A stretch of DNA of 64,000 nt from Escherichia coli (GTDB lineage Bacteria > Pseudomonadota > Gammaproteobacteria > Enterobacterales > Enterobacteriaceae), in NCBI RefSeq assembly GCF_044647545.1, contig NZ_CP172818.1, one strand, 5' to 3'. Positions 14,121 to 64,000 of the stretch are shown here, one piece after another. Below the pieces are notes generated by a model. It saw only the letters and a program-made list of their open reading frames with translations, was not told the origin of the DNA and searched no databases. The translations under genes and the position numbers were made by a program. Each line of letters starts with the position of its first letter. Within the stretch, counting starts at the first letter, position 1.

Positions 14121-15716
14121 TTACCCTCGTGCCGCCAGTGCGGTGACTCTGTCGTAAGCGGAACCACTGCGCAGTACCTCAAGAACGGTTTGCGCATTGG
14201 CTTGCAGATCTTCATGGCCATGCAGGCGCATTAACATGGCGACATTCGCCGCGACGGCTGCTTCGTGAGCGGCGTCGCCTTTACCTTGTAACAAGCGTGT
14301 TAAAATGTCACGGTTTTCTTCCGGTGTTCCGCCTGCCAGTTGCTCCTGGTGGTAGGGTGTCAGGCCAAAATCTTCAGCGGTCAATTGATAGCTCTTAATT
14401 TCGCCGTCATGCAGTTCGGCAACGATTGTCGGCGCGTGTAATGAAACTTCATCCATCCCGCCGCTGTGCACCACCGCCGCGCGTTGATACCCCAGCACGC
14501 GCAAGGTTTCGGCAATCGGCAGCACCAGTTCCGGACTATAAACACCAATTAGCGCCAGCGGCGGATGCGCCGGGTTAATCAATGGCCCCAGCACATTGAA
14601 CAGAGTGCGGGTTTTCAGTTGCTGGCGAACCGGCATCGCATGGCGGAATCCGGTGTGATATTTCGGCGCAAAGAGGAAACAGACGCCTAACTCATCCAGC
14701 GCCTGGCGCGATTTATCGGCGTTCATATCAAGATTAATACCGAACGCCGCCAGCAGATCCGACGAGCCGGATTTACTGGAGACGCTACGGTTGCCGTGTT
14801 TCGCCACTTTCAGCCCACAGGCCGCGGCGACAAACGCACTGGCGGTAGAAATATTGATGCTGTTACTGCCGTCACCGCCGGTGCCGACGATATCGGCAAA
14901 CAGATAATCAGGGCGTGGGAACGGCGCGGCGTTTTCCAGTAGCGCGGTTGCTGCCCCGGCGATCTCGTTCGGGTGCTCACCGCGAATTTTCATGCTCACC
15001 AGCGCCGCCGCCAGTTGTTCCGGCTTCAGCTCGCCACGTACCACCGCTGAAAACAGCTGGTGGCTTTCTTGTTGGCTAAGCGTCTGTGCCTGATACAGTT
15101 TTTCCAGAATCGGTTGCAGCGTGTTGGTTGGCTCTAGTTTCTGCTGCGCCCAGGCCAGCGTTTGTTCCAGCAGGCGAGCGCCCTGGGTAGTAAGAATGGA
15201 TTCCGGATGGAACTGGAATCCACAAACGCGATCCGCATCATGACGCACCGCCATCACCATGCCATTAAAATGGGCGTTGATGGTTAAACCGGCCGGAATA
15301 TTACTGCCAACCAGCGAGTGATAACGCGCCACTGGCAGCGGGTTTGTTAATCCGGCAAACATCGCCTGACCGTCATGTTCAATGCTCGACGCTTTACCGT
15401 GAAGAATTTCGCCCGCCTGACCGACATAGCCCCCGTAAGCTTCGACAATCGCCTGATGACCGAGGCAAATGCCAATAATTGGCAGCTTGCCGCGCAGGCG
15501 GGTGAGGAGTTCCGGCATACAACCGGCTTCGCTCGGCACACCGGGGCCAGGAGAGAGCATCAGCACCGGATTGCTCATCGTCGCCAGGCGTTCAATTAAG
15601 GTCTGCGCCGGAATATGGTTGCGGTAAATCACCACGTTATGCCCATTGCTGCGCAACTGATCTGCCAGGTTGTAAGTAAAAGAATCGATATTATCGAGTA
15701 GCAGAATGTCAGCCAT
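14121..15716 (-). CDS. trpD: Anthranilate synthase component II / anthranilate phosphoribosyltransferase (bifunctional)
   Basis: 531-aa ORF: N-terminal glutamine amidotransferase domain, C-terminal PRT domain. Confidence 0.97.
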
Positions 15717-17278
15717 CAGAAAGTCTCCTGTGCATGATGCGCGGTGGCAATAGCGCGCAGTACAGCGCGGGCTTTATTACGGGTTTCGTCGGCTTCCGAC
15801 TGCGGAACAGAATCAAGGACTACGCCAGCACCGGCTTGCACGGTGGCGATACCGTTTTCCACGAGCGCCGAGCGGATCACAATGCAGGTGTCGAGATCGC
15901 CATTTGCGGTGAAATAACCTACCGCGCCGCCGTAGCTGCCGCGGCGACGACCTTCTGCTTCGGCAATTAACTGCATAGCGCGTACTTTCGGCGCACCGCT
16001 TAACGTCCCCATATTCATACAGGCGCGGTAAGCGTGCAGGGCGTCGAGATCGTGGCGCAGCTCACCGACAACGCGGGAGACCAGGTGCATCACGTAAGAG
16101 TAACGGTCTACTTTGGTGAGATCGGCGACGTAGCGGCTGCCGGGTGTGCAAATGCGTGCCAGGTCATTACGGGCGAGATCCACCAGCATCAGATGTTCAG
16201 AAAGCTCTTTATGATCGGTACGCATCTCCAGTTCGATGCGGCTGTCGAGGTCTCTGTCCAGTGAACCATCGGCACGACGACCGCGTGGACGTGTTCCGGC
16301 AATCGGGTAAATCTCAATCTGGCGGCTGGTGGCGTCATACTTGAGCGAACTTTCCGGCGACGCGCCAAACAGGGTGAAATCATTATCCTGCATAAAAAAC
16401 ATGTACGGGCTGGGATTACTCTTTTTCAGCACGTAATAGGCCGCCAGCGGTGACGGGCAGGGCAGAGAGAAACGGCGAGATGGCACCACCTGGAAAATTT
16501 CTCCGGCGCGAATCGCTTTTTGCAACGAACGCACTACGCCACCGAACTCTTCATCGCTCTGATTACATTCACAAAGCATATGCGGCACGGAAACTACCGG
16601 CAGCGGTGGCGCGGTTTCGGTCAGTTGCTGGCGAAGTTCGTTCAGGCGAGCAGTGAGACGTTGTTTTTCTTCTTCATTTGGAGTAAACAGGCTGGCCTGA
16701 ATGCGGGTGCTTTTCTTCTGATGGTCAATCACCATCAGCGTTTCAGCGAGATAAAAACAGAAATCAGGGCAGTTATTTTCCGCTGACAATTGCGGTAAAT
16801 CTTCAAATCCCGCCACAATGTCATAAGAGAACAGGCCGCCGAAGAACATTGCTTCTCGTTCTTCCTTCGGTACATTCAACAGATTCTGCAATATGCGGAA
16901 AGCGTCAAAAACCGAAAGGGAGCATAAGCGGGCGTCTTCATCCAGCAATGGACTGACAGGGGGGAAGCGCAGCACGCGGCAGTTTGGTGATTGTTCATTT
17001 TCCACACCCGCAGGCAGGGCGTTATCCAGTAATGCCAGCAGAGCTTCGCCATTGCCGGAAAGTGCCTGAATAGTGACAGTGTCACCTAATGCTGTAATGC
17101 GCAGCGCACTGTCCACTAGCAATAGACTTTTTAAATCATCTTTGCTGTCGATATCTGCGGATTCCAGCAGCAGCGTTGCCGGACGATCCCCACACAACTG
17201 GTGAAAAAGCGCAGTCGGGTTGTCGCGATAAGCGCCTTTGCAAGTTAGCAGTTCGAGAGTCGGTTTTTGTGTTTGCAT
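15716..17278 (-). CDS. trpE: Anthranilate synthase component I
   Basis: 520-aa [16 protein letters not shown]...; stop overlaps trpD start. Confidence 0.97.
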
Positions 17279-17289
17279 TGTTATTCTCT

Positions 17290-17318
17290 AATTTTGTTCA
17301 AAAAAAAGCCCGCTCATT
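17290..17318 (-). terminator. trp attenuator (3:4 terminator hairpin)
   Basis: Minus-strand AGCCCGCCTAATGAGCGGGCT followed by T8, between trpL and trpE. Confidence 0.9.
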
Positions 17319-17369
17319 AGGCGGGCTGGGTATCTGATTGCTTTACGCATGGTGAATACACTGCCCGTT

Positions 17370-17414
17370 TCAGGAAGTGCGCCACCAACCTTTCAGTACG
17401 AAAATTGCTTTCAT
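17370..17414 (-). CDS. trpL: trp operon leader peptide
   Basis: ATG AAA GCA ATT TTC GTA CTG AAA GGT TGG TGG CGC ACT TCC TGA = [14 protein letters not shown] with the tandem Trp codons. Confidence 0.9.
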
Positions 17415-17439
17415 TGTCGATACCCTTTTTACGTGAACT

Positions 17440-17480
17440 TGCGTACTAGTTAACTAGTTCGGTGATTAATTGTCAACAGC
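17440..17480 (-). promoter_or_regulatory. trp promoter with TrpR operator
   Basis: Minus-strand TTGACA (17471-17476), 17-nt spacer, TTAACT (17448-17453); operator palindrome GTACTAGTTAACTAGTAC overlaps the -10. Confidence 0.85.
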
Positions 17481-17551
17481 TCATTTCAGAATATTTGCCA
17501 GAACCGTTATGATGTCGGCGCAAAAAACATTATCCAGAACGGGAGTGCGCC

Positions 17552-22053: not shown

Positions 22054-22466
<413 letters not shown>

Positions 22467-22508
22467 TGCGGATAATGACATGGAATATCCGGCATTATAT
22501 TTACAGCA

Positions 22509-45767: not shown

Positions 45768-45924
45768 AGCTTTAATCCTTATTGTTGATGCTTGTTGTGC
45801 CTGAAAATCAGGCGATTCGTCGTTTTAGTAAACAGTACGAACAGATAAACGGTTATTATAATCAACCTGGCTGTGGGTGGCTATAGTTGCCAGGTCCGAC
45901 CGGAGCAGGCTGCGGCAGGGGGGG

Positions 45925-46150
45925 CGCTTTTCCCCTCACCCTAACCCTCTCCCCAGAGGGGCGAGGGGACCGTATTGTGCAAATATTGTTACCCCAGCAA
46001 CAAACAGGCTCATACAGCCCCTAACCCTTTCATGGCGATGGCTGGGACGGTTCAGACCTTGCCGAATATTCTCCAGCACCGTCTCCATGTTTTCACCACA
46101 ACAGCTATTCGGCTCGGTCTGCCCCCTCGCTCTTTCAGGGAGAGGGTGAC
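45925..46150. repeat. GC-rich imperfect-palindrome intergenic repeats (box C-like) plus a ~40-bp imperfect direct repeat of the ycjD 3' end
   Basis: ttcccctcaccctaaccctctccccagaggggcgaggggacc (about 45929-45971) and gccccctcgctctttcagggagagggtgacc (about 46121-46151); cggttcag..gaatattctccagcaccgtctcc occurs at about 46048-46087 and again at 46154-46192. Confidence 0.55.
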
Positions 46151-46488
46151 CGGCGGTTCAGTTCCTGCAGAATATTCTCCAGCACCGTCTCCTCATTACA
46201 ATCAATCTCGTTATTCCAGAAACGCAGCACGGTCCAGCCCTGCGACTCAAGCCAGCTAGTGCGCCTGGAATCATAGGCAACTGCTAAATCATGCTGCCCA
46301 CCATCCAGCTCAACGACTACACGCGCCGAGCAGCAAGCAAAATCGAGAATGTAGCTCCCCACTGGATGTTGACGGCGAAATTTGAAATCACTAAAACGTC
46401 GGCTGCGAAGATATCGCCAGAGCTTTCGTTCCTGCAAAGTGAGATTGCGTCTTAAATCACGCGCATTTGATTTAATTTTATCTATCAC
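46135..46488 (-). CDS. ycjD: DUF559 (Vsr/endonuclease-like) protein YcjD
   Basis: 117-aa ORF, apparent GTG start. Confidence 0.85.
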   Translation of the reverse strand: MIDKIKSNARDLRRNLTLQERKLWRYLRSRRFSDFKFRRQHPVGSYILDFACCSARVVVELDGGQHDLAVAYDSRRTSWLESQGWTVLRFWNNEIDCNEETVLENILQELNRRSPSP

Positions 46489-46555
46489 CTCATTCTGACA
46501 AGATTTAATCTTTTGTCAGAATGAGGTGAATAATCTGGAAGGAGGATTCAGAAGA

Positions 46556-47362
46556 TTAACGGTCCTTACGCCACGCATCCGCCGTCAATGCCTCGCCAAA
46601 ATGACCGGCGATCAGCCGTTTGGTGAGTTCATGCAGCGGCGATGCCAGCACATCCGCGGTGCTGCCTCGCTCGACAACCTCGCCCTGATGCATCACCAGC
46701 ACCTGGTCGCTAATGTGCTTCATCATTCCGATATGCTGGGTAACATAAATATACGAAATGCCCTGTTTTTCCTGTAACTCCAGCATCAGGTTAATCAACT
46801 GCGAACGCATCGACATATCCAGTGAGGCGAGGGCTTCATCGGCAATAATGACTTTTGGGCGCAATATCAGCGCGCGCGCCAGACCCAGACGCTGTTTTTG
46901 CCCGGGTGCCAACATATGCGGATAGTAACTGACGTGATCCGGTAGCAGCCCAACCATACGCATCGTTTCAATAATCTGTTTGCGACGCTGTTCCGGTTCC
47001 AGATCGGTGTTCAGACGCAGTGGAAAATCCAGAATTTGCGAGATACGTTGACGGGGATTCAACGAGGTCGAAGGATCCTGAAAAATCATGCGAATACGCT
47101 GACTGCGGAAGGAATAATCGCCAAAATGCAGCGGATGATCGTCAATCAATAACTCGCCGCTGGTAGGTTCTATCATTCCCGCCAGCATTTTTGCCAGCGT
47201 GGATTTACCCGAACCATTCTCGCCAATAATCGCCAGTGTCTGGCCTTCACGTAGCGTAAAGCTCAAGGGTTTTACCGCTTCTACGGTCTGACGACGAAAC
47301 CAGCCGGTCCGGTAGCGGAACGTTTTACTTAAATTACGCACTTCAAGTAGCGTTTCGATCAT
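46556..47362 (-). CDS. sapF: Peptide/putrescine ABC transporter ATP-binding protein SapF
   Basis: 268-aa ORF with Walker A GENGSGKST. Confidence 0.95.
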   Translation of the reverse strand: MIETLLEVRNLSKTFRYRTGWFRRQTVEAVKPLSFTLREGQTLAIIGENGSGKSTLAKMLAGMIEPTSGELLIDDHPLHFGDYSFRSQRIRMIFQDPSTSLNPRQRISQILDFPLRLNTDLEPEQRRKQIIETMRMVGLLPDHVSYYPHMLAPGQKQRLGLARALILRPKVIIADEALASLDMSMRSQLINLMLELQEKQGISYIYVTQHIGMMKHISDQVLVMHQGEVVERGSTADVLASPLHELTKRLIAGHFGEALTADAWRKDR

Positions 47363-47363
47363 C

Positions 47364-48356
47364 TCACTCTTTCTCCATGTTCAGCGGGAAATGACAGGCA
47401 TAGAGATGATTTTTCGCCCCCGTCAAACGTGGCGTCACAATGCATTCTCGTTGTGCATACGGGCAACGCGGCCCCAGACGACACCCAATCGGTAACTGTT
47501 CCAGCAGTGGGATAGCGCCGGGCAGCGTATTGAGGCGACTTTTATGCGGCATCGCGCTGCCGAAGTCTGGTATCGCGCGGATCAGCGCCTGGGTATAAGG
47601 ATGATGTGGCATTGTCACCAACTCCTTACTTGGCGCGGTTTCCACCGTTTGACCGCAGTAAAGCACGTTAATTTTATCCGCCCATTGGCTAAGCATTTGT
47701 AAGTCATGGCTGATAAGCAAAATAGTGGTATTGCTGTTTTGGTTGAGACGCGTCAGCAGGCGAAAGATTTGCGCCTGGGTTGTTGGCTCCATTGAGTTTG
47801 TCGGTTCGTCAGCAATCAGCAGACGCGGTTGATTCGCCAGTGCAATGGCTATCATCACTTTCTGACATTCACCTTCGGTCAACTCATAGGGAAAACTGCG
47901 CATCGCATCTTTGTGATCTTTAATCCCCACGCGGTGCAGCAGTTCAATGGCACGGCGTTTGCGCCAGCCAAAACGCTGCCACCAACGGCCTTTATAGGTC
48001 CAGGCTGGGATGTTTTGCATCAACTGGCGACCCACACGTTCTGAAGGGTCAAGACACGACTGCGGTTCCTGGAAAATCATCGACACGTTGTGACCAACCA
48101 GCTTGCGCCGTTCGCGTGCGGAGAGACGCAGCAAATCGATATCATCAAAACGCATACGATCAGCTGTGACACGCCAGTTATCTTTATTCACCCCACAAAT
48201 CGCTTTCGCAATCAAACTTTTGCCGGAACCTGATTCGCCAACAAGACCGCGGATTTCACCTTCGGTTAAGGTCATACTTACGCGGTCGACGGCTTTAACC
48301 CACTCATCACCGGTTTTAAATTCAATGGTCAGGTTACGAATATCGAGTAATGGCAT
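47364..48356 (-). CDS. sapD: Peptide ABC transporter ATP-binding protein SapD
   Basis: 330-aa ORF with Walker A GESGSGKS. Confidence 0.95.
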
Positions 48357-49246
48357 TATTCCACCCCCGCAATAATTGCACGACGGACACCGTCGCCAAG
48401 GAGGTTAACCAACAGCACGCTAATCATAATTGCCGCACCTGGCAGCATGACAGTCCACGGGGCGACATAAATCAGTTCCAGCGCATCACCGAGCATCGCT
48501 CCCCATTCAGGCGAGGGGAGTTGTGCGCCGAGATCGAGAAAGCCCAGCGCGGCGATATCGAGAATTGCCATCGACAGTGCGCGGGTGATCTCGGTGACCA
48601 GCCCGGCGGTGATGTTTGGCATCACAGCAAACCAGAGAATATTCAGCGTTGATGCGCCATCCAGACGGGCGGCGATAACGTACTCTTTTTCCAGTTCGTC
48701 ATGCACCATGCTGTAAATCGAACGTACCATACGCGGCAGCAGCGCCAGCCAGACGGCAAACATGGCGTGAGACAAACTCGGTCCGGCAAACGCTACAACG
48801 ATAATTGCCAGCAGTAGGGAAGGGATCGCCAGTAAGGTATCCAGAATATGGTTAAGCACCGCTGAGCGGAGGCCGTGGGTCGCCCCGGCGAAGGTGCCCA
48901 GAACCAGGCCACAGATCGTCGCGGCAAGCGTCACCACAAATGCGCCACCTACGGTTGGCGCAGCTCCGCTCAGTAAACGGCTTAAAACATCGCGTCCGAG
49001 GTCGTCAGTCCCCAGGAAGAAAGAAACTTCGCCATAGCGCGACCATGACGGCGGCAATAATTGGTAACCGAGAAATTGCTGGTCGATGCCGTAAGGCGCA
49101 AACCAGCCGCCAAAAATACACAGTACAGCCAGCCCCGCGCAGCCGTACAGGCCGACCATCGCAGAGGCGTCACTATAAAATTTGCGCCAGGCGGTACGCA
49201 GCGTGCCCGGCGGGCGCTTTTCGCTGTATACGCTATCGTAAGGCAT
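48356..49246 (-). CDS. sapC: Peptide ABC transporter permease SapC
   Basis: 296-aa polytopic permease (OppC/DppC family). Confidence 0.95.
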
Positions 49247-50198
49247 ACCATTCCTTATGTTTCAGAGGGTTAGCCATGGCACCCAAAATATCAGAAATCA
49301 CGTTAACAATAATGACCAATGAGCCACACACCATCACTCCGGCGGAAATGGCTGCGTAATCCTGCTGGCGGATGGCGTTAATTAACCAGCGCCCTAAACC
49401 CGGCCAGCTAAAAACCATTTCGGTGATCATCGCCAGCGTCAGCATGGTAGAAAACTGTAAGCCCAGGCGAGGAATAACCGGAGGTAACGCGTTATGCAGA
49501 ACGTGGCGACGCAAAATAGTAAAGCGCGACAAACCGCGGGTCGCCGCTGCTTTAACATAGTTCTGGTCATACACTTCGATAGTGCTGATACGCATTAGTC
49601 GGATCACTTCAGTTGTTGGCGCAACCGACAGGGTGATCACGGGTAATATCATATGGCGGATTGCGCTCATGACCATTTCATCCCGCCACGGTGAGTCCGA
49701 AAGCCAGGCATCAATCAACGCAAAACCGGTAATCGGTTTCACTTCGTAGAGCAAATCGAAACGCCCAGAAACGGGCAACCAACCTAGCGTGAGTGAACAA
49801 AACAGCGTCAACAGAAGCGCCAGCCAGAACACCGGGATTGAAAAGCCCAGTAAGGCGATGGCGTTGATCAAGTTATCCTGCCACTTATGGCGCGTAATCC
49901 CGGCAATCATCCCCACGGGGATGCCAACAATCAGCGCAAAACCGAAGGCGAGGATGCACAGTTCCATCGTCGCCGGGAAGACCTCTTTTAACTGTTCGGC
50001 AATCGGTTGGCCGTTAATGCTGGAAACACCAAAATCCCAGTGGATCAGGCCATTAAACCAGAACACCCAGGCATTCCACAGTGACGCGCCTTGTAACGGC
50101 GCATGTGGGGTGAAATAGCTCAAGCTGAAGCCAACGAAGGTCAGCAGGAACAAGGTGACAATCAATAACAAAATACGGCGTAAGGTGAAGATAATCAT
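49233..50198 (-). CDS. sapB: Peptide ABC transporter permease SapB
   Basis: 321-aa polytopic permease (OppB/DppB family). Confidence 0.95.
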
Positions 50199-51838
50199 GG
50201 CTTTTTCACCTCATCCTGTTTCTCGCGATACACCCCAGCAAAGGAGGCGTTACCAAACGGGCTAAGTACCAGACCTTTGATATCGTACCGATAGGCCTGC
50301 AAACGCAATGACGACGCCAGCGGCAGAATAGGTAATTCCTGCGCCAGAATACTTTGCGCTTCGTCATAGGCTTCAATACGCGCCGCCAGCTGCTGCGAGG
50401 AGAGCGCCTTACGCAACACGCTGTCGAATTTCGGATCGCACCAGTGGGCGAGGTTGGTCTGTGAATGAATTGCCGCGCAGCTCAGTAACGGACGGAAGAA
50501 ACTGTCCGGGTCGTTACTGTCCGTCGCCCAACCGGATAACGTCAGATCATGGCTCATATCCATCAACCGCGCCTCCTGAAAACGACCTTCTACCGGCACA
50601 ATCACCACTTTTACGCCAACCTGTGCCATATCCGCCTGAATCAGTTCGGCGGTTTTCAGTGGACTGGGGTTCCACGCCTGCGAACGTGTGGGCACCCACA
50701 GTTTCAGCGTTAAGTTTTCCAGCCCCAACGCCTTCAACTGTTCGCGCGATTTTGCCGGATTGTATTCAGTAATTTTAGCCTCGTTGTCATAGGCCCACGA
50801 GGCGCGCGGTAAAATAGAGGCCGCCGTTTCAGCCGTACCATAATAGATGGATTGCATCAGGCGCTGGTTATTAATCGCCAGTGCCAGTGCATGGCGGACC
50901 GCCGGATTATTTAGCGGCGGTTTAGCGGTGTTAAACGCCAGATAGGCGACGTTCATCCCCGGGCGCAGCGTTAAACGCAAGCGCGGGTCGTCACGCAAAA
51001 TGGATAGCTGACTGGCGGCAGGCCAGGCCAGAACGTCGCATTCCCCGGTCAGGAGTTTCGACAGACGTCCGGTACCGCCGGAGCCTAAATCCACCACCAC
51101 CTGCGGCATTAACGGTTTGCCGCGCCAGAAGTCATCATGACGTTGTAGGCGAATAAATTGCCCGGCGCGGTATTCCGACAACTGATACGGTCCAGTGCCG
51201 ACCGGTTGACGGTCGAGTTGCTCCTGGCGATCTTCTTTCTCTAACTTCCCTGCATATTCTGCCGACATGACCGAAGCATAATGGGTCGCGAGGTGCCACA
51301 AAAAAGAAGCATCCGGCTGAGCCAGACGGAACTCAACGGTATGATTATCCAGTTTGCGGACGCTTTTCACGTTATCGGCAAATTGCAGGCTGTCGAAATA
51401 GGGGAAGTTGCTGCCATTAACGTTATGCCACGGGTTGTTGCGGTCAAAAATTCGCTGGAAGGTAAACACCACATCGTCGGCATTCATTTTACGAGTGGGA
51501 GTAAACCAGTCGGTTTTTTGAAACGGAACATCGCGACGCAGGTGGAAGCGATAGGTCGCGCCGTTGTCGAGTACTTCCCAGCTTTCGGCAAGTTCCGGCA
51601 TCAGGCGATAGGTATAGGGATCGACATCCAGCAGTCGATCATAAAACTGGGCGGCAAGGGTATCGACAATTAACCCACTGCTCGCTTTGGATGGGTTAAA
51701 GGTGTTGACTTGCCCGCTGACGCAATAGACAAAACCGCTGTCGCGGATATCAGCATGCGGGGGGGATTCAGGCGCGGCGATTGCCTGACCACTCACAAGT
51801 CCAGCAATCACCAAAAGAGACGATAATACCTGGCGCAT
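50195..51838 (-). CDS. sapA: Periplasmic peptide-binding protein SapA
   Basis: 547-aa ORF with signal peptide, SBP family 5. Confidence 0.95.
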
Positions 51839-52086
51839 AATATTAATGGATTTTATGTAAAGAGGCTATCTTACTAATATTTAATGACATTTGCCATTAC
51901 CGTTTGTGTTCAGGGGTCGTAATGAGGGCCGTGTGGTTGGTCGTTGAACAGGTGGCGTCGCCATCTGTTCAACATTCGTACCCGTGATTTCTCTATAACT
52001 ATAACTCACAGAACAACTTAGCGAGGAGCAGAGCGGTACGATCGTGAGAAACCCATTGAGGCACACTGCAGTGCGTGTCATTGTTA

Positions 52087-52120
52087 GCCGGATGCGGCGT
52101 GAACGCTTTATCCGGACAAC
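52087..52120. repeat. REP (repetitive extragenic palindrome) element
   Basis: gccggatgcggcgtgaacgctttatccggacaac matches the REP consensus GCCGGATGCGGCGTGAACGCCTTATCCGG. Confidence 0.8.
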
Positions 52121-52150
52121 GATACTGACCCATCGTCTGCAATGAAATAA

Positions 52151-52396
52151 TTACTCATTACCCCATTGATTCAAAAACTCTGCGATCTCATCAATGCGTA
52201 CGGGATTAATCCCCGCTTCAGCAGCCATTTCATGTTGGGCTTCTTCACTGATCTCTTCATTGTTCATCAAACGGGTGAGCAGTAACTGGAAGTAGTGGGC
52301 CAGCGGTGTGCGTTCAGCGTCTGCGACAGGCTCTGCGCATTCGGTCGCGTACTCATCGGCAATATCAAAATATTTTAGCGGGATATCGTGGTTCAT
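52151..52396 (-). CDS. ymjA: DUF2543 protein YmjA
   Basis: 81-aa ORF matching YmjA. Confidence 0.85.
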
Positions 52397-52529
52397 TATT
52401 TGCCCCTGGGGTTAATGCGCTAAGCATAAGGGCGGATGATAGCACTCGTGATCCGGGTCATACATCTTTTTATAGTTAATGGCGCGGTGCATTACCCTCA
52501 GCCAGGATAATGCGCCGCGCATCCGACTA

Positions 52530-53915
52530 TTACGTTTCGCTCACCGGCGTTCTGTCACCATCATACAACGGCACTTTGCGATAGCGGCGGATCAGATACC
52601 ACAAATATGCGCCGCCTAACGAAGCCCATACCAGACCGAGTGTCAGTGACGTTGACTCGAGGTTAACCCACAGCACACCCACCGTCAGCGCGCCAACCAG
52701 CGGCATCAGCAAATAGTGGAAGTGATCCTTCCAGCTTTTATTCATTCCTTTACGCCGCCAGAAATGATTAAACACCGACAGATTTACGAAGGTAAATGCC
52801 ACCAGAGCACCGAAGTTAATCAATGCTGTGGCGGTAACTAAATCGAAGAACAGCGCCGACAACGCGACAATCCCGACCATAATGACGTTCAGTGCCGGAG
52901 TCCGCCATTTTGGGTGCACATAGCCAAACACGCGCTCCGGAAACACATTGTCACGCCCCATCACATACAGCAGACGCGACACGCTGGCGTGCGACGCCAG
53001 GCCAGACGCTAACGTGTTCACAAACGTGGTACAGAGGAAAATCGACTGGAAGAGCTTGCCGCCGACGTACAGCGCAATCTCAGGTAGTGCGGCGTCCGGG
53101 TCTTTAAAGCGGCTGATATCAGGAAAGAACAGCTGCATAAAGAACGACGCAGCGATAAAGATAACGCCACCGTAGACCGCCGTCAGGAAGATGGCTTTCG
53201 GGATCACGCGTGCGGCGTCCGGCGTCTCTTCCGAAAGCGTGGTCACCGCATCGAAACCGAGGAAGGAAAAACAGACAATCGTCGCCCCGGTAATAATCGG
53301 GATCAGGTGCGCGTTCTCGCTGATAAACGGCTGAAGTGACCAGACGGTGCCAACGCCTTCTCCTTTATGCAGTCCCTGAACCACCAGGAAGATAAACACC
53401 ACCATGATGGAGATTTGCACCAACACAAACAGGGTATTGAAGTTAGCAACCAGGTTGACGCTCTTCAGATTCGCGGCGGTTAAAATGGCGACGAAGGTTA
53501 CCACCCACACCCACGGCGGCACTTCCGGGAAGAGGGCGGAGAGATAGATTTTCGCCAACAAGACGTTGATCATCGGCAAAAAGAGATAATCCAGCAGCGA
53601 TGACCAGCCGACCATAAATCCGACGTGCGGGTTAATCGACTTTTGCGCGTAGGTATAGGCCGAACCGGCTTCCGGAAACTGGCGAACCAGTTTGCCGTAG
53701 CTGATAGCGGTAAACAGCACGCCCGCCAGCGCCAGCAAATAGGACGCCGGAACGTGACCGTCGCTAATGCCGGAGACAATACCAAAAGTATCAAATACGG
53801 TCATCGGCGTGAGATAGGCCAGACCCATCATCACCACCTGCCACAATTTCAGTGATTTTCGCAGACGGGTTTTGCCAGATTGCGCAGCAATAGTCAGTGG
53901 TGAATTAATAGCCAT
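52530..53915 (-). CDS. puuP: Putrescine importer (APC family)
   Basis: Start trimmed to [15 protein letters not shown] (461 aa); 12-TM amino acid/polyamine permease. Confidence 0.93.
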
Positions 53916-54217
53916 AGTTGCTGCCTCCCCTGCGTAATAAGGTTTGCGGTCGTGTCGACCTGAAATCAAACCTGTTTAGCAAGGGAAGCAAAGGGGGCGG
54001 AGTCCAGTCAGTCGCAGGAGGGGCGCATACGCAGCCTCCCTCGCCATGCGGGGATTTAATCATCGGCATCATCTCATTTCCTCGTCACAGTCTTAATCGT
54101 TAACGGAAGCCCGTTGCCGCCTGCGCTCCATAACGCGACATCCGGGAAATGTCTGGATTACCAGCAAATGTCAGGCCTGGCTCCGCTCAGGCCGATGAAA
54201 CAACCCCGCAAGGGGTA

Positions 54218-55636
54218 TTACGCGTTTTTCAACATCCACTCAATTTCTGTTTCTGTGATGAGGCGCTCAAACTGCAACAGCTCATCATTTTTACAGGCGT
54301 GATAGACATGGCAGAAGCGTTCGCCTAAATAGCGGCGCAGGTGATCATTCTCGATAAACTCACCCAGGGCATCGCTCTGGCGAATCGGGAAGGGTAAGCC
54401 TTCCTGTTCCAGCCCGTTACCTTCGACTTCTTCCTGTAATGGCAGTTCGTTATCAAGGCCATGCAAAATACCGGCAAAAATCGCCGCCATCACCAGATAC
54501 GGGTTGGCATCGGCACCCGCCACGCGATATTCCACGCGGTGATTATGGCGATCGCCGCAGGGAATACGCAGGGCGACGGTGCGGTTGTTATGGCCCCACG
54601 ACGCCTGCGTCGGTACATACATACCTGGCTGGAAGCGGCGATACGAGTTCACGTTTGGTGCCAGCAACGCCATTGATGACGGCATCAGGTCAATCATCCC
54701 GGCAAGCATCTTTTTCAGCAGCGGCGAATCTTCGCCTTCCGCGTCAGAAAGCACGTTCTCGCCACGGTTATTTTGCATACTGATATGGATATGCATCCCG
54801 CTGCCCGCGTGCTCTTCATACGGCTTCGCCATAAAAGTGGCGTGCATCTTATGCTTTTCTGCCATCAGACGCACCAGGCGTTTTAGTGCCAGCGCATCAT
54901 CGCAAGCTTCCAGCACGTTATCGGTATGGTAAAGATTGATTTCAAACTGACCCGGCGAGGCCTCAGCGACCGCGCCATCAGCCGGAATCAGCTGTAACTG
55001 CGCCAGTTCATCAATATCATTGAGCACGTCGGCGAAGTGGTTGAGATTATCAACGGAGTAAACCTGGCTTTGTGTATTGCGGTCATCGGTGCCGGGCGCG
55101 CAGGGCGGTTGCAGATACCCTTCAGCGTCGCGCTGGCGATCCAGTAAATAGAACTCCAGCTCTACCGCTACGACCGGGAACAATCCGCGCTGGCGCAGCT
55201 GCTGCCACAGGCGGTTAAGAACGTTCCGCGGCTCAACGTCAAAGGGAGCGCCATCTTCATCGACCATGGTCAGGAGCATCTGACCGATAAACTCTGGATC
55301 GGCGGCAGAAGGGGTTAAGGAACCGAGAACAGGAACACAGGTACGATCCGGCTCGCCCATTTCCTGACCCAGGCCCGCTTCTTCTACTACGTTGCCCAGA
55401 ATATCCATTGCAAACACCGAGGCCGGGAAATAACACCCTTTCTCGAGCTTCTTCAGGCTTGAAACAGGAATACGTTTTCCACGGAAGCAACCATTCAAAT
55501 CGGTAAGTAAAACATCAACATATTGCGTATTCGGGTAGCGCTCCAGGTAGCGTTTCACTTCCTGCGTAAAGGCGCTACCCCGCCTCTCTTCTGACTGCTG
55601 AACAAAGTTCTCTACTTCAACGATATTGGTTTCCAT
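54218..55636 (-). CDS. puuA: Gamma-glutamylputrescine synthetase (glutamine synthetase family)
   Basis: Start trimmed to METNIVEVENFVQQ (472 aa). Confidence 0.93.
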   Translation of the reverse strand: METNIVEVENFVQQSEERRGSAFTQEVKRYLERYPNTQYVDVLLTDLNGCFRGKRIPVSSLKKLEKGCYFPASVFAMDILGNVVEEAGLGQEMGEPDRTCVPVLGSLTPSAADPEFIGQMLLTMVDEDGAPFDVEPRNVLNRLWQQLRQRGLFPVVAVELEFYLLDRQRDAEGYLQPPCAPGTDDRNTQSQVYSVDNLNHFADVLNDIDELAQLQLIPADGAVAEASPGQFEINLYHTDNVLEACDDALALKRLVRLMAEKHKMHATFMAKPYEEHAGSGMHIHISMQNNRGENVLSDAEGEDSPLLKKMLAGMIDLMPSSMALLAPNVNSYRRFQPGMYVPTQASWGHNNRTVALRIPCGDRHNHRVEYRVAGADANPYLVMAAIFAGILHGLDNELPLQEEVEGNGLEQEGLPFPIRQSDALGEFIENDHLRRYLGERFCHVYHACKNDELLQFERLITETEIEWMLKNA

Positions 55637-55679
55637 GATTCTTCGCCTTTGGTTTGTTTTCCGCTCGTTATCAAAGCGT

Positions 55680-55694
55680 AAAATATAATGACCA
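55680..55694. promoter_or_regulatory. PuuR-box-like operator in the divergent puuA/puuD control region
   Basis: aaaatataatgacca resembles the PuuR recognition motif as I recall it (AAAATATAATGAACA); further AT-rich repeats (aaatgtttg, aaaatattgaacat) lie nearby. Confidence 0.4.
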
Positions 55695-55847
55695 CTATTC
55701 GAATCTGTATGCAAACTAAATGTTTGTCAAATGTTAAATTGAGTTTGCAAAAATGAAAACCCGCTGCTAGATTGAAAAAATATTGAACATAAAGGTCATT
55801 TAAAGCGCAGTAATGGCGATAATTTAGTCCACTTTGTGAGATTGAGC

Positions 55848-56612
55848 ATGGAAAATATAATGAACAATCCGGTTATCGGTGTCGTAATGTGCAGGAACAG
55901 GCTTAAGGGTCATGCGACCCAGACTCTGCAAGAAAAGTACCTGAATGCCATCATCCACGCAGGCGGCTTGCCAATTGCGCTGCCACATGCGCTGGCGGAA
56001 CCGTCATTACTTGAACAACTTTTGCCGAAACTCGATGGTATTTATCTTCCTGGTAGTCCCAGCAATGTGCAGCCGCACCTATATGGTGAAAACGGCGATG
56101 AGCCTGACGCCGATCCCGGGCGTGATCTTCTGAGCATGGCGTTAATTAATGCCGCACTCGAAAGGCGCATCCCCATTTTCGCCATCTGCCGGGGTTTACA
56201 GGAACTGGTGGTGGCAACCGGTGGTTCGTTGCATCGCAAGCTGTGCGAACAGCCTGAATTGCTGGAACATCGGGAAGATCCCGAACTGCCGGTGGAGCAG
56301 CAATATGCGCCGTCGCATGAAGTTCTGGTTGAAGAGGGGGGATTACTGTCTGCGTTGTTACCTGAATGTAGCAACTTTTGGGTAAACTCTCTGCATGGAC
56401 AAGGGGCGAAGGTCGTTAGCCCACGGTTGCGTGTTGAAGCTCGCTCGCCGGATGGCTTAGTTGAGGCGGTTAGCGTCATCAATCATCCTTTTGCGCTGGG
56501 CGTACAGTGGCACCCGGAATGGAACAGTAGCGAGTACGCGCTTTCGCGTATATTGTTCGAGGGCTTTATCACCGCTTGTCAGCACCATATCGCTGAAAAA
56601 AAGCGACTCTGA
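55848..56612 (+). CDS. puuD: Gamma-glutamyl-gamma-aminobutyrate hydrolase
   Basis: Start MENIMNNPVIGVVM (254 aa); class I glutamine amidotransferase-like with catalytic Cys in ICRG. Confidence 0.93.
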   Translation: MENIMNNPVIGVVMCRNRLKGHATQTLQEKYLNAIIHAGGLPIALPHALAEPSLLEQLLPKLDGIYLPGSPSNVQPHLYGENGDEPDADPGRDLLSMALINAALERRIPIFAICRGLQELVVATGGSLHRKLCEQPELLEHREDPELPVEQQYAPSHEVLVEEGGLLSALLPECSNFWVNSLHGQGAKVVSPRLRVEARSPDGLVEAVSVINHPFALGVQWHPEWNSSEYALSRILFEGFITACQHHIAEKKRL

Positions 56613-56638
56613 CCACTACAGTTTAAGGAAATGCAAAT

Positions 56639-57196
56639 ATGAGTGATGAGGGACTGGCGCCAGGAAAACGCTTGTCGGAAATCCGCCAGCAGCAGGGGCT
56701 TTCACAACGTCGTGCCGCCGAACTCTCCGGGCTGACTCACAGTGCTATCAGTACGATAGAACAAGATAAAGTCAGCCCTGCCATCAGTACGCTGCAAAAG
56801 CTGCTGAAGGTGTATGGTCTGTCACTCTCGGAATTCTTTTCCGAGCCGGAAAAACCTGATGAGCCGCAGGTCGTCATTAATCAGGACGACTTAATTGAGA
56901 TGGGCAGTCAGGGTGTGTCAATGAAGCTGGTTCATAACGGTAACCCGAATCGCACGCTGGCGATGATCTTTGAAACTTACCAGCCGGGCACAACCACTGG
57001 GGAAAGAATTAAGCATCAGGGTGAGGAAATAGGCACTGTACTGGAAGGTGAAATTGTTCTGACCATTAATGGTCAGGATTATCATCTCGTCGCGGGGCAA
57101 AGTTATGCCATTAATACCGGCATCCCGCACAGTTTCAGTAATACGTCGGCAGGTATTTGCCGAATTATCAGCGCCCATACGCCCACCACGTTTTAA
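56639..57196 (+). CDS. puuR: HTH-XRE/cupin repressor of the puu divergon
   Basis: 185-aa ORF with N-terminal XRE HTH and C-terminal cupin domain. Confidence 0.93.
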   Translation: MSDEGLAPGKRLSEIRQQQGLSQRRAAELSGLTHSAISTIEQDKVSPAISTLQKLLKVYGLSLSEFFSEPEKPDEPQVVINQDDLIEMGSQGVSMKLVHNGNPNRTLAMIFETYQPGTTTGERIKHQGEEIGTVLEGEIVLTINGQDYHLVAGQSYAINTGIPHSFSNTSAGICRIISAHTPTTF

Positions 57197-57344
57197 TCTT
57201 TTTGTTCTGTAAGCCGGGTAAGCGCAATGCGCCCGGCAATCATAAAGAATGTCGCCAGAAATAAACGGGCATACGGCCCGGGGATCTCTGCGCCCTGACG
57301 TTCACAAACTGCATATATCTGATAGACGTGAAACAGGAGTCATA

Positions 57345-58832
57345 ATGAATTTTTATCATCTGGCTTACTGGCAGGATAAAGCGTTAAGTCTCGCCATTGA
57401 AACCCGCTTATTTATTAACGGTGAATATACTGCTGCGGAGGAAAATGAAACTTTTGAAACCGTTGATCCGGTCACCCAGGCACCGCTGGCGAAAATTGCC
57501 CGCGGCAAGAGCGTCGATATCGACCGTGCGGTGAGCGCAGCACGCGGCGTATTTGAACGCGGCGACTGGTCACTCTCTTCTCCGGCTAAACGTAAAGCGG
57601 TACTGAATAAACTCGCCGATTTAATGGAAGCCAACGCCGAAGAGCTGGCACTGCTGGAAACGCTCGACACCGGCAAACCGATTCGTCACAGCCTGCGTGA
57701 TGATATTCCCGGCGCGGCGCGCGCCATTCGCTGGTACGCCGAAGCGATCGACAAAGTGTATGGCGAAGTGGCGACCACCAGTAGCCATGAGCTGGCGATG
57801 ATCGTGCGTGAACCGGTCGGCGTGATTGCCGCCATCGTGCCGTGGAACTTCCCGCTGCTGCTGACTTGCTGGAAACTCGGCCCGGCGCTGGCGGCGGGAA
57901 ACAGCGTGATTCTAAAACCGTCTGAAAAATCACCGCTCAGTGCGATTCGTCTCGCGGGGCTGGCGAAAGAAGCGGGGCTGCCGGATGGTGTGTTGAACGT
58001 GGTGACGGGTTTTGGTCATGAAGCCGGGCAGGCGCTTTCGCGCCATAACGATATCGATGCCATTGCCTTTACTGGCTCAACCCGCACCGGGAAACAGCTG
58101 CTGAAGGACGCGGGCGACAGCAACATGAAACGCGTCTGGCTGGAGGCGGGCGGCAAAAGCGCCAACATCGTTTTCGCCGACTGCCCGAATTTGCAACAGG
58201 CGGCAAGCGCCACCGCCGCAGGCATTTTCTACAACCAGGGCCAGGTGTGCATCGCCGGAACGCGTTTGTTGCTGGAAGAGAGCATTGCCGATGAATTCTT
58301 AGCCCTGTTAAAACAGCAGGCGCAAAACTGGCAGCCGGGCCATCCACTTGATCCCGCAACCACCATGGGCACCTTAATCGACTGCGCCCACGCCGACTCG
58401 GTCCATAGCTTTATTCGGGAAGGCGAAAGCAAAGGGCAACTGCTGCTGGATGGCCGTAACGCCGAGCTGGCTGCCGCCATCGGCCCGACCATCTTTGTGG
58501 AGGTAGACCCGAATGCGTCCTTAAGCCGCGAAGAGATTTTCGGTCCGGTGCTGGTGGTCACGCGTTTCACATCAGAAGAACAGGCGCTACAGCTTGCCAA
58601 CGACAGCCAGTACGGACTTGGCGCGGCGGTATGGACGCGCGACCTCTCCCGCGCGCACCGCATGAGTCGCCGCCTGAAAGCCGGCTCCGTCTTCGTCAAT
58701 AACTACAACGACGGCGATATGACCGTGCCGTTTGGCGGCTATAAGCAGAGCGGCAACGGGCGCGACAAATCCCTGCATGCCCTTGAAAAATTCACCGAAC
58801 TGAAAACCATCTGGATAAGCCTGGAGGCCTGA
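57345..58832 (+). CDS. puuC: Gamma-glutamyl-gamma-aminobutyraldehyde dehydrogenase
   Basis: Start MNFYHLAYWQDKAL (495 aa); aldehyde dehydrogenase with catalytic Cys in QGQVCIAG. Confidence 0.93.
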   Translation: MNFYHLAYWQDKALSLAIETRLFINGEYTAAEENETFETVDPVTQAPLAKIARGKSVDIDRAVSAARGVFERGDWSLSSPAKRKAVLNKLADLMEANAEELALLETLDTGKPIRHSLRDDIPGAARAIRWYAEAIDKVYGEVATTSSHELAMIVREPVGVIAAIVPWNFPLLLTCWKLGPALAAGNSVILKPSEKSPLSAIRLAGLAKEAGLPDGVLNVVTGFGHEAGQALSRHNDIDAIAFTGSTRTGKQLLKDAGDSNMKRVWLEAGGKSANIVFADCPNLQQAASATAAGIFYNQGQVCIAGTRLLLEESIADEFLALLKQQAQNWQPGHPLDPATTMGTLIDCAHADSVHSFIREGESKGQLLLDGRNAELAAAIGPTIFVEVDPNASLSREEIFGPVLVVTRFTSEEQALQLANDSQYGLGAAVWTRDLSRAHRMSRRLKAGSVFVNNYNDGDMTVPFGGYKQSGNGRDKSLHALEKFTELKTIWISLEA

Positions 58833-58833
58833 A

Positions 58834-60114
58834 ATGACCGAACATACCAGCAGTTACTACGCCGCCAGTGCGAATAAATACGCGCCATTCGACACGCTGA
58901 ATGAGTCGATTTCCTGCGACGTTTGCGTGGTCGGTGGCGGCTATACCGGGCTTTCCTCCGCGCTGCATCTGGCGGAAGCGGGCTTTGATGTAGTGGTTCT
59001 CGAAGCCTCACGCATCGGCTTCGGCGCAAGCGGACGCAATGGCGGGCAGCTTGTGAACTCCTACAGCCGCGACATCGACGTGATCGAAAAAAGCTACGGC
59101 ATGGACACCGCCCGTATGCTCGGCAGCATGATGTTTGAAGGCGGAGAGATCATCCGCGAACGTATCAAACGTTATCAGATTGACTGCGACTACCGCCCCG
59201 GCGGCCTGTTTGTGGCGATGAATGATAAACAGCTCGCCACACTCGAAGAGCAGAAAGAGAACTGGGAACGCTACGGCAATAAACAGCTGGAGCTGCTGGA
59301 TGCCAACGCCATTCGCCGTGAAGTAGCCAGCGATCGCTACACTGGTGCGCTGCTGGATCACAGCGGTGGGCATATTCACCCGCTAAACCTCGCCATTGGT
59401 GAAGCCGATGCCATCCGCCTGAACGGAGGGCGCGTGTATGAGCTTTCCGCCGTGACGCAGATCCAGCACACCACGCCAGCCGTGGTGCGGACTGCCAATG
59501 GTCAGGTGACGGCGAAGTATGTGATTGTCGCCGGGAATGCGTATCTGGGCGATAAAGTAGAGCCGGAACTAGCGAAACGCAGCATGCCGTGCGGCACGCA
59601 GGTGATCACCACTGAACGGCTGTCGGAAGATTTAGCCCGTTCGCTGATTCCGAAAAACTACTGTGTGGAAGACTGTAACTATCTGCTTGATTACTACCGT
59701 CTTACCGCCGATAACCGCCTGCTGTACGGCGGCGGCGTGGTCTACGGCGCGCGCGACCCGGATGACGTTGAGCGCCTTGTGGTGCCGAAACTGCTGAAAA
59801 CCTTCCCGCAGCTGAAGGGCGTGAAAATTGATTACCGCTGGACGGGCAACTTCCTGCTGACCCTGTCACGCATGCCGCAGTTTGGTCGCCTCGATACCAA
59901 CATCTACTACATGCAGGGCTACAGCGGCCACGGCGTCACCTGTACCCATCTTGCCGGGCGTTTGATTGCTGAACTGCTGCGCGGTGACGCCGAACGCTTC
60001 GACGCCTTCGCCAATCTGCCGCATTACCCGTTCCCCGGCGGGCGCACGCTGCGCGTTCCGTTTACCGCGATGGGCGCGGCTTATTACAGCCTGCGCGATC
60101 GTCTGGGCGTTTAA
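58834..60114 (+). CDS. puuB: Gamma-glutamylputrescine oxidoreductase (FAD-dependent)
   Basis: 426-aa ORF with FAD-binding GxGxxG (VVGGGYTG). Confidence 0.93.
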   Translation: MTEHTSSYYAASANKYAPFDTLNESISCDVCVVGGGYTGLSSALHLAEAGFDVVVLEASRIGFGASGRNGGQLVNSYSRDIDVIEKSYGMDTARMLGSMMFEGGEIIRERIKRYQIDCDYRPGGLFVAMNDKQLATLEEQKENWERYGNKQLELLDANAIRREVASDRYTGALLDHSGGHIHPLNLAIGEADAIRLNGGRVYELSAVTQIQHTTPAVVRTANGQVTAKYVIVAGNAYLGDKVEPELAKRSMPCGTQVITTERLSEDLARSLIPKNYCVEDCNYLLDYYRLTADNRLLYGGGVVYGARDPDDVERLVVPKLLKTFPQLKGVKIDYRWTGNFLLTLSRMPQFGRLDTNIYYMQGYSGHGVTCTHLAGRLIAELLRGDAERFDAFANLPHYPFPGGRTLRVPFTAMGAAYYSLRDRLGV

Positions 60115-60151
60115 TTTCCGATTAACAGTGAAGAGTCAAAAGGTGTGAAAC

Positions 60152-61417
60152 ATGAGCAACAATGAATTCCATCAGCGTCGTCTTTCTGCTACCCCTCGCG
60201 GGGTTGGCGTGATGTGTAACTTCTTCGCCCAGTCGGCAGAAAACGCCATGCTGAAGGACGTAGAGGGCAACGAATACATCGATTTCGCCGCAGGCATTGC
60301 GGTGCTGAATATCGGGCATCGCCACCCTGATCTGGTCGCGGCGGTGGAGCAGCAATTGCAACAGTTTACCCACACGGCGTATCAGATTGTGCCGTACGAA
60401 AGCTACGTCACCCTGGCGGAGAAAATCAACGCCCTTGCCCCGGTGAGCGGGCAGGCTAAAACTGCGTTCTTCACCACCGGTGCGGAAGCGGTGGAGAACG
60501 CGGTGAAAATCGCCCGCGCCCATACCGGACGCCCTGGCGTGATTGCGTTTAGCGGCGGCTTCCACGGTCGTACATATATGACCATGGCGCTGACCGGAAA
60601 GGTCGCGCCGTACAAAATCGGCTTCGGCCCGTTCCCCGGTTCGGTATATCACGTACCTTATCCGACAGATTTACATGGCGTTTCAACGCAGGACTCTCTC
60701 GACGCCATCGAACGCTTGTTTAAATCGGACATTGAAGCGAAGCAGGTGGCGGCGATTATTTTCGAACCGGTGCAGGGCGAAGGCGGTTTCAACGTTGCAC
60801 CAAAAGAGCTGGTTGCCGCCATTCGCCGCCTGTGCGACGAGCACGGCATTGTGATGATTGCCGATGAAGTGCAAAGCGGCTTTGCGCGTACCGGTAAACT
60901 GTTTGCCATGGATCACTACGCCGATAAGCCGGACTTAATGACGATGGCGAAAAGCCTCGCGGGCGGCATGCCGCTTTCGGGCGTGGTCGGTAACGCGAAT
61001 ATTATGGACGCGCCCGCGCCGGGCGGGTTGGGTGGTACTTACGCCGGGAACCCGCTGGCGGTGGCTGCCGCGCACGCTGTGCTCAACATTATCGACAAAG
61101 AATCACTCTGTGAACGCGCGAATCAACTGGGCCAGCGCCTGACAAACACGTTGATTGATGCCAAAGAAAGCGTTCCGGCCATCGCGGCGGTACGCGGTCT
61201 GGGGTCTATGATTGCGGCAGAGTTTAACGATCCGCAAACGGGCGAGCCGTCAGCGGCGATTGCACAGAAAATCCAGCAACGCGCGCTGGCGCAGGGGCTG
61301 CTCCTGCTGACCTGTGGCGCATACGGCAACGTGATTCGTTTCCTGTATCCGCTGACCATCCCGGATGCGCAATTCGATGCGGCAATGAAAATTTTGCAGG
61401 ATGCGCTGAAAGATTAA
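60152..61417 (+). CDS. puuE: 4-aminobutyrate aminotransferase
   Basis: 421-aa class III PLP aminotransferase. Confidence 0.93.
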   Translation: MSNNEFHQRRLSATPRGVGVMCNFFAQSAENAMLKDVEGNEYIDFAAGIAVLNIGHRHPDLVAAVEQQLQQFTHTAYQIVPYESYVTLAEKINALAPVSGQAKTAFFTTGAEAVENAVKIARAHTGRPGVIAFSGGFHGRTYMTMALTGKVAPYKIGFGPFPGSVYHVPYPTDLHGVSTQDSLDAIERLFKSDIEAKQVAAIIFEPVQGEGGFNVAPKELVAAIRRLCDEHGIVMIADEVQSGFARTGKLFAMDHYADKPDLMTMAKSLAGGMPLSGVVGNANIMDAPAPGGLGGTYAGNPLAVAAAHAVLNIIDKESLCERANQLGQRLTNTLIDAKESVPAIAAVRGLGSMIAAEFNDPQTGEPSAAIAQKIQQRALAQGLLLLTCGAYGNVIRFLYPLTIPDAQFDAAMKILQDALKD

Positions 61418-61439
61418 TAGCCCAACGCAATAATGTCTA

Positions 61440-61520
61440 ATGCGCTGCGCTTATCAGGCCTGCAAACGACGTATTGATTATGTATGCCGGATAAAGCATT
61501 CACGCCGCATCCGGCAAGTT
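61440..61520. repeat. REP/BIME elements between puuE and pspF
   Basis: gcgctgcgcttatcaggcctgcaaac and inverted tgccggataaagcattcacgccgcatccggcaag. Confidence 0.75.
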
Positions 61521-61536
61521 GTATTGCCCAACTTCG

Positions 61537-62514
61537 CTAAATCTGGTGCTTTTTCAACAACGCGCGGAACTGATGATAGGTTAACCCCAGCAATTCAGCT
61601 GCGCGCTTCTGGTTATATTTCCCTTGTTGCAAACTGAGTTGCAGCAACTCTTTTTCCTGCTGCATCTGAAACTCACGTAAATCCAGCGGCAGTGTTGGAA
61701 GCGAGGTGATTTCTGAAACGGCGATAGCGTCTTCAGGCGGACGCCGTTTAAAGGGATCAATAATGATGTCATCAAGCGGATAATCGCTGGTGCCGTGGCG
61801 ATACACTGAACGTTCCACCACGTTTTTCAATTCACGAATATTTCCCGGCCAGCGATAATTCAGCAATGTTTCTCTGGCGCGCTCCGTAAAACCCGGGAAC
61901 AGAGGCAGCTTGATTTCCCGACACATCTGAATGGCAAAGTGTTCTGCCATCAGCATAATGTCGCTTTCGCGCTCGCGCAGGGGCGGCAGTTGCACTACAT
62001 CGAAAGCCAGCCGGTCGAGCAGGTCAGCGCGAAAAGTACCTTCATTGACCATCGCCGGGAGATCGGCATTCGTCGCGCATACCAACCGCACATTCACCTG
62101 CAATGGCTGGCTACCGCCAACGCGCTCCAGTTCACCGTACTCAATCACACGCAATAATTTTTCCTGCACCATCATCGGTGCCGTAGCGAGTTCATCAAGA
62201 AATAGCGTACCGCCATCGGCACGTTCAAATCTCCCAGGATGACGTTTTTGCGCACCGGTAAACGCCCCCGCTTCGTGACCAAACAGTTCGGAATCCAGCA
62301 GATTTTCATTTAACGCCGCGCAGTTAAGGGAAATAAACGGCCCTTGCCAACGGGAGGAGAGATAATGCAGACGGCTGGCAATCAGCTCTTTACCTGTGCC
62401 GCGCTCGCCGATGATGAGCACCGGTTTGTCCAGCGGTGCGAGATGCGAAACCTGTTCCAGCACTTCGAGAAAGCTGTTCGCCTCACCGAGTAAATTATCT
62501 TTGTATTCTGCCAT
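61537..62514 (-). CDS. pspF: Sigma54-dependent activator of the psp operon (AAA+ enhancer-binding protein)
   Basis: Start MAEYKDNLLGEANSFLEV (325 aa); Walker A GERGTGKE, GAFTGA motif, C-terminal HTH. Confidence 0.95.
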   Translation of the reverse strand: MAEYKDNLLGEANSFLEVLEQVSHLAPLDKPVLIIGERGTGKELIASRLHYLSSRWQGPFISLNCAALNENLLDSELFGHEAGAFTGAQKRHPGRFERADGGTLFLDELATAPMMVQEKLLRVIEYGELERVGGSQPLQVNVRLVCATNADLPAMVNEGTFRADLLDRLAFDVVQLPPLRERESDIMLMAEHFAIQMCREIKLPLFPGFTERARETLLNYRWPGNIRELKNVVERSVYRHGTSDYPLDDIIIDPFKRRPPEDAIAVSEITSLPTLPLDLREFQMQQEKELLQLSLQQGKYNQKRAAELLGLTYHQFRALLKKHQI

Positions 62515-62608
62515 GATGAAATTCGCCACTTGTTAGTGTAATTCGCTAATTCATCCTGGCATGTTGCTGTTGATTCTTCAATCAGATCTTTATAAATCAA
62601 AAAGATAA

Positions 62609-63349
<741 letters not shown>

Positions 63350-63402
63350 TAACATCCAGGCGGCGTCCGAACGCGCCGCCGCTCATCGTCTAAGGAGTCC
63401 TT

Positions 63403-63986: not shown

Positions 63987-63994
63987 GGAAAGTT

Positions 63995-64000
63995 ATGAAT
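63995..64000 (+). CDS. pspD: Phage shock protein D, first two codons only (partial at window end)
   Basis: ATG AAT with GAGGA SD 6 nt upstream, directly after the pspC stop. Confidence 0.5.

Follow-up and report, generated by a model that had tools for sequence, protein, structure and literature searches.

Organisation of the trp control region

The window analysed here is a stretch of 64,000 nucleotides from Escherichia coli (NCBI RefSeq assembly GCF_044647545.1, contig NZ_CP172818.1). On its minus strand lies a complete trp control region in which all the elements are present, followed by trpE, which encodes component I of anthranilate synthase (Table 1). The features that characterise a control region of the E. 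coli type, namely a sigma-70 promoter, an operator dyad, a leader open reading frame and a leader RNA matching the Rfam model RF00513, were all found. The original prediction, which had been made from the letters alone, described the promoter, the operator, trpL with its tandem Trp codons and the attenuator as present, and this description was confirmed by direct reading of the sequence, by alignment to MG1655 and by the RF00513 match of 93.1 bits.

Table 1. Coordinates of the trp control region, of the two sites discussed in the text and of the neighbouring anomalies in the window
Feature	Position	Strand	Remarks
trp promoter -35 hexamer, TTGACA	17476-17471	-	Read directly; same as MG1655; invariant in all sampled Escherichia
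Promoter spacer, 17 bp, ATTAATCACCGAACTAG	17470-17454	-	Length as in K-12; downstream part overlaps the operator
Sole control-region difference from MG1655	17462 (position -22)	-	T>C on the trp strand, G on the plus strand
Operator dyad, CGAACTAGTTAACTAGTACG	17461-17442 (-21 to -2)	-	Same as MG1655; overlaps the -10 region
trp promoter -10 hexamer, TTAACT	17453-17448	-	Read directly; same as MG1655
Transcription start (+1)	17440	-	Gives the trpL AUG at +27 and the trpE AUG at +163 (computed offsets)
trpL leader peptide gene, with tandem Trp codons	17414-17370	-	0/45 nt differences from MG1655
Trp leader RNA (attenuator structures), RF00513 Trp_leader	17393-17300	-	93.1 bits, E=1.4e-20
Attenuator terminator	17327-17299	-	7-bp G+C-rich hairpin followed by a T8 run; terminator scan; same as MG1655
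trpE (anthranilate synthase component I)	15716-17278	-	ATG at 17278; allele WP_022645613.1
TrpE codon 14	17239-17237	-	AAA (Lys); GAA (Glu) in MG1655
yciE pseudogene	9041-9546	-	E26* nonsense mutation (GAA>TAA, codon 26) and 1-bp deletion at nt 155
Poly(A) block	22064-22508		445 bp, 76% A, A runs up to 48; between the stop codons of rluB and cobO/btuR

From this layout, control of the operon would involve a sigma-70 promoter and, overlapping it, the TrpR operator, then the trpL leader peptide and, after it, a transcription attenuator. The dyad is assigned on established knowledge, and we take it to be the TrpR operator; the transcription start is likewise presumed to be correctly placed, as it agrees with the classical 162-nt trp leader. 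The leader gene is annotated as WP_001700591.1, with matching coordinates, in the E. coli genome Ecol_881. The match to RF00513, for which the gathering score is 41, covers the full length of the model, and the stem of the terminator identified by the terminator scan occupies 17327-17307 and contains 6 G-C pairs.

A generic promoter scan missed the real trp promoter, as its -10 hexamer, TTAACT, coincides with TATAAT at only 3 of 6 positions. This omission is a limit of the generic scan and not of the promoter, the identity of which therefore rests on its exact identity to that of K-12. The same scan flagged, on the plus strand, the arrangement TTCAGA-17-TATGAT at 17485-17513, just upstream of rnm (trpH, start 17552), which is a candidate divergent rnm promoter placed back-to-back with the trp promoter.

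Differences from the K-12 sequence

The K-12 reference was MG1655 (NC_000913.3), in which the trp region lies at about 1,322,947-1,323,219. A second record labelled E. coli K-12, NZ_CP047127.1, is not wild-type here: a Tn3-like ISEc63 transposase and other foreign genes are found in kch, and the annotation of trpCF is shortened. It was dropped as a modified derivative and is unsuitable as a stand-in for MG1655.

The original prediction had also stated that the promoter spacer and TrpE codon 14 depart from the K-12 sequence, and the alignment to MG1655 proved it right at both sites. The spacer reads AATCACCGAAC in the window and AATCATCGAAC in K-12 (both in MG1655 and in a K-12 derivative), a difference of one base, while Lys replaces Glu at TrpE codon 14. 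The range of 17280-17480 that had been given for these differences does include the promoter substitution; codon 14 falls about 40 bp outside it.

The substitution at -22 is the only difference from MG1655 in the 273 bp of the rnm–trpE intergenic region. Within the spacer it belongs to the upstream half, directly adjoining the operator dyad on its upstream side, and the two sequences are identical from -21 through +162, sharing hexamers, spacing, operator, leader peptide and terminator. Apart from this T>C change, the window departs from MG1655 in the trpE gene downstream, in which 72 of 1,563 nucleotides differ (4.6%), giving rise to nine amino acid substitutions (E14K, S94N, L129I, L154I, A199T, A222T, R235L, L251S and H459N). 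The corresponding nucleotide differences in trpD, trpB and trpA are 3.2%, 2.8% and 5.5%. Thus, with a single difference in 273 bp against 2.8-5.5% in the trp genes, the regulatory region is far better conserved than the genes that it controls.

Variation of the promoter spacer

The frequency of each allele among complete E. coli genomes was estimated with 55-mers carrying the variant base at their centre, so that the 28-base exact seed of megablast must span the site. Counts obtained in this way are approximate owing to the seed requirement, about 20-40 genomes being caught by neither allele query; with this margin, -22C was found in about 97 of 5,426 genomes (84 of them with the exact 55-mer) and -22T in 5,283. 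The exact K-12 55-mer was present in only 4,038 genomes, and therefore about a quarter of E. coli differ from K-12 somewhere within this 55-bp promoter segment.

Genomes sampled from each allele class revealed that the spacer from -28 to -22 is a polymorphic patch. Lineages vary at -28, -25, -24, -23, -22, -21, -19 and -1, although the changes at -21, -19 and -1 appear in single genomes, and no change was observed in the hexamers or in the central operator of any Escherichia genome sampled. With respect to MG1655, IHE3034 carries -24 C>T, E2348/69 -23 A>G, E. albertii -25 T>C and Escherichia sp. E1V33 -28 T>C.

Among the sampled genomes, -22C is found on at least seven local E. coli haplotypes: the ST648-like type to which the window belongs; the same type with -1 C>A (GF131); a K-12-like background, also with -1 C>A (602354); and haplotypes in which -22C is accompanied by -28C (90-3040), by -25C and a trpE of the B2 type (AREA_492), by -21T (AF39) or by -19G (MFDS1022581). 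The presence of the pair -22C/-1A on two unrelated backgrounds, those of GF131 and 602354, hints at short-tract recombination of the promoter segment.

The variation extends beyond the species. A scan with the pattern TTGACA-N10-GAACTAGTTAACTAGTAC, using one genome per species, located the GAACTAGTTAACTAGTAC core next to TTGACA in the genomes of 59 enterobacterial species, of which 37 have T at the position equivalent to -22, 12 have A, and G and C are found in 5 each. In Escherichia whittamii (NZ_JACSQI010000004.1), C at -22 is native and the spacer ATTAATCACC is that of the window; the -35 hexamer, spacer and operator, TTGACAATTAATCACCGAACTAGTTAACTAGTAC, coincide exactly, although this is another species, which shows 16 differences from MG1655 over the 430 bp compared. 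In Salmonella enterica subsp. arizonae, the sequence ...CACC, with C at -22, adjoins an unchanged operator. The native occurrence of -22C in these two organisms indicates that it is compatible with a native, presumably functional, trp promoter/operator.

Escherichia lineages differ freely in this patch of the spacer, and the T>C substitution is therefore most likely to be neutral or nearly so. Neither hexamer nor the dyad is affected by it and the spacer keeps its 17 bp, so that it does not have the sequence characteristics of a promoter-down or an operator-constitutive mutation.

As an alternative, -22C could be a functional regulatory variant: it would change the strength of the promoter, or affect how a second TrpR dimer binds in tandem upstream, and ST648-like strains would then regulate trp expression differently. 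Two TrpR dimers can occupy the trp operator in tandem. In such a complex, base -22 would presumably belong to the outer half-site of the dimer lying upstream, and the substitution might slightly affect the cooperativity of repression. The site abuts the operator dyad, it stands out as the single change in an intergenic region that is otherwise strongly conserved (1 in 273 bp, against 4.6% in trpE), and its recurrence on at least seven haplotypes could reflect repeated selection. However, the neighbouring positions -28 to -23 vary too among healthy lineages, all four bases are found at the position across the 59 species, E. whittamii and S. enterica subsp. arizonae naturally have C next to an unchanged operator, the hexamers and the length of the spacer are unaltered, and short-tract recombination or an ordinary transition would explain the recurrence equally well. 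Taken together, these observations make a functional role for the base improbable.

A more specific proposal would be that -22C recurs in E. whittamii and on at least seven haplotypes of E. coli because selection has repeatedly favoured a slight change in the trp promoter or in the response to TrpR, perhaps through weaker binding of the upstream tandem TrpR dimer. If this were true, extraintestinal lineages such as ST648 could have other set-points for tryptophan biosynthesis, for instance under tryptophan limitation in the host. This proposal is considered highly improbable.

Residue 14 of TrpE

The second difference, E14K, is a reversal of charge, and it corresponds to a common allele. Glu14 (G allele) is present in 4,881 genomes and Lys14 (A allele) in about 518, the two queries together accounting for 5,399 of 5,421 genomes with the region. 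Strain A20 and two B2 reference strains, IHE3034 and E2348/69, are among those with Lys14. A synthetic 55-mer that combines Lys14 with flanks of the K-12 type had no exact match; its 345 partial matches are probably, for the most part, B2-type genomes already counted, and strain E23 appears both in this list and in that obtained with the 55-mer of the window allele.

Residue 14 is Glu in E. whittamii and in Escherichia sp. E1V33. Comparison with the closest homologues of solved structure, the full-length proteins of Salmonella Typhimurium (PDB 1I1Q, E=0) and Serratia marcescens (1I7Q/1I7S, E=1.7e-244) places Asp at this position in Salmonella 1I1Q and Gln in Serratia 1I7Q, where the window has Lys and K-12 has Glu. 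Glu, or an acidic residue, looks to be ancestral, with Lys derived in a subset of E. coli, and position 14 is evidently free to vary rather than conserved. Because the allele is common and enterobacterial anthranilate synthases differ at this position, E14K is most likely neutral.

Lineage of the window

Identity to MG1655 is 97.35% over 1-22054, 98.22% over 22485-57244 and 96.92% over 57242-64000, which falls short of the near-100% identity of a K-12 strain, and the window is not from K-12. By contrast with these values of 96.9-98.2%, it is identical to Ecol_881 (NZ_CP019029) over 1-22063 and 22509-45890, and 99.99% identical over 46557-60116. The non-K-12 origin that had been deduced from the two differences is thus upheld by the alignment, the match to Ecol_881 and its relatives being of 100% outside two structural differences.

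Eight genomes tie as the top match to positions 1-25000, with IMT16316 within a few bits of them; IMT16316 and its relatives show 100.0% identity over 98% of this segment, and 85 complete genomes are at least 99% identical over the first 25 kb. IMT16316 belongs to ST648 (PMC6003029), and ST648 is included in phylogroup F (PMC12736214). These neighbours point to an ST648-like lineage of phylogroup F as the source of the window, an assignment made by nearest-neighbour identity, since none of the MLST loci (adk, fumC, gyrB, icd, mdh, purA and recA) or of the Clermont markers is contained in the 64-kb window.

The ST648-like genomes Ecol_881, ECONIH1 (NZ_CP009859), IMT16316 (NZ_CP023815) and FDAARGOS_497 (NZ_CP033850) are 100% identical to the window across the trp region, and they share with it -22C, the TrpE allele WP_022645613.1 and the yciE pseudogene. 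One of the structural differences is that they carry a two-gene islet of 1,556 bp where the window has the A-rich block. The other lies at 45890-46557, between fabI and sapF, where Ecol_881 has a 7.9-kb TetR/RND efflux cluster and the window a K-12-like ycjD segment; this segment is 99.07% identical to MG1655. No complete genome matches positions 40000-64000 in one piece at about 100%.

It might be argued that the trp haplotype was imported by recombination and is discordant with the rest of the chromosome, in which case the two substitutions would say little about the background of the strain. The divergence from MG1655 is indeed uneven along the three segments of the window, Lys14 is common to B2 strains and -22C is not, and the pairing of -22C with -1A on two backgrounds indicates that some recombination has taken place in the region. 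Nevertheless, ST648-like genomes match about 59 kb, the window minus its two structural differences, at 99.99-100% identity; in this clade the trp haplotype therefore travels with its flanking sequence, and an import of this kind is extremely improbable. That the two substitutions are sequencing or assembly errors of the source record, as the artefactual and unique appearance of the poly(A)-rich block in the same window might lead one to suspect, was rejected as having a probability close to nil, because the identical 55-mer is found in 84 independently sequenced complete genomes and the 22,063 bp around the trp region are base for base those of Ecol_881.

The yciE pseudogene and the poly(A) block

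The original prediction had linked the lineage of the window to whether two neighbouring anomalies, the lesions in yciE and the poly(A) block, are specific to the strain, and the answer differs between them: the yciE lesions are not, whereas the block was found in no other genome searched. Ecol_881 has both yciE lesions in identical form, its gene being annotated as "frameshifted; internal stop", and the haplotype is present at 99% identity or more in about 116 of 5,426 complete genomes. These lesions are a clade trait shared by the lineage.

At the site of the poly(A) block, the closest genomes have the 1.56-kb islet mentioned above, with two hypothetical genes encoding proteins of 340 and 102 amino acids, neither of which gave a match in a Pfam scan; in MG1655 the site spans just 39 bp. 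At its left edge, the block resembles the start of the islet with the G's missing, and at the right edge 26 bases internal to the islet are fused to a K-12-like hairpin remnant. The block is present in no close relative and in no complete genome searched. Its right junction is covered by no complete E. coli genome, and an exact-match scan of metagenome contigs did not find it. Unique to the window, the block is probably an artefact of sequencing, of assembly or of the record; confined to this record, it should be treated as a probable artefact and not as biology.

Interpretation and significance

Taking all these data together, the locus is very probably a standard E. coli trp control region with two ordinary, lineage-marking polymorphisms that would be neutral or nearly so. 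The hexamers, the 17-bp spacing, the operator dyad, the Trp codons of trpL, the alternative leader hairpins and the terminator are base for base those of K-12, and because these known regulatory elements are identical, repression by TrpR and attenuation should work as in K-12, the latter by stalling of the ribosome at the Trp codons.

A natural trp promoter-down variant is said to occur in Shigella dysenteriae 16, for which a lower trp expression was reportedly demonstrated experimentally in work ascribed to Miozzari and Yanofsky in 1978. This variant and -22C are alike in being natural base changes in the trp promoter region within the E. coli/Shigella lineage. Unlike the former, -22C bears no sign of a promoter-down phenotype in the sequence comparison. 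The 1978 paper of these authors (PNAS 75:5580) is cited in PMC4615214.

Nothing in the region is new, as dozens of complete genomes in public databases already contain its exact sequence and both alleles are common. The biological weight of the two differences is small, and their practical value is that of a lineage marker that distinguishes an ST648-like (phylogroup F) background from K-12. The lineage assignment also serves to sort the neighbouring oddities, separating a clade trait, the yciE pseudogene, from a probable artefact, the poly(A) block. In more general terms, the trp hexamers and the central operator are invariant in the Escherichia genomes sampled, while the upstream part of the spacer, from -28 to -22, drifts freely.
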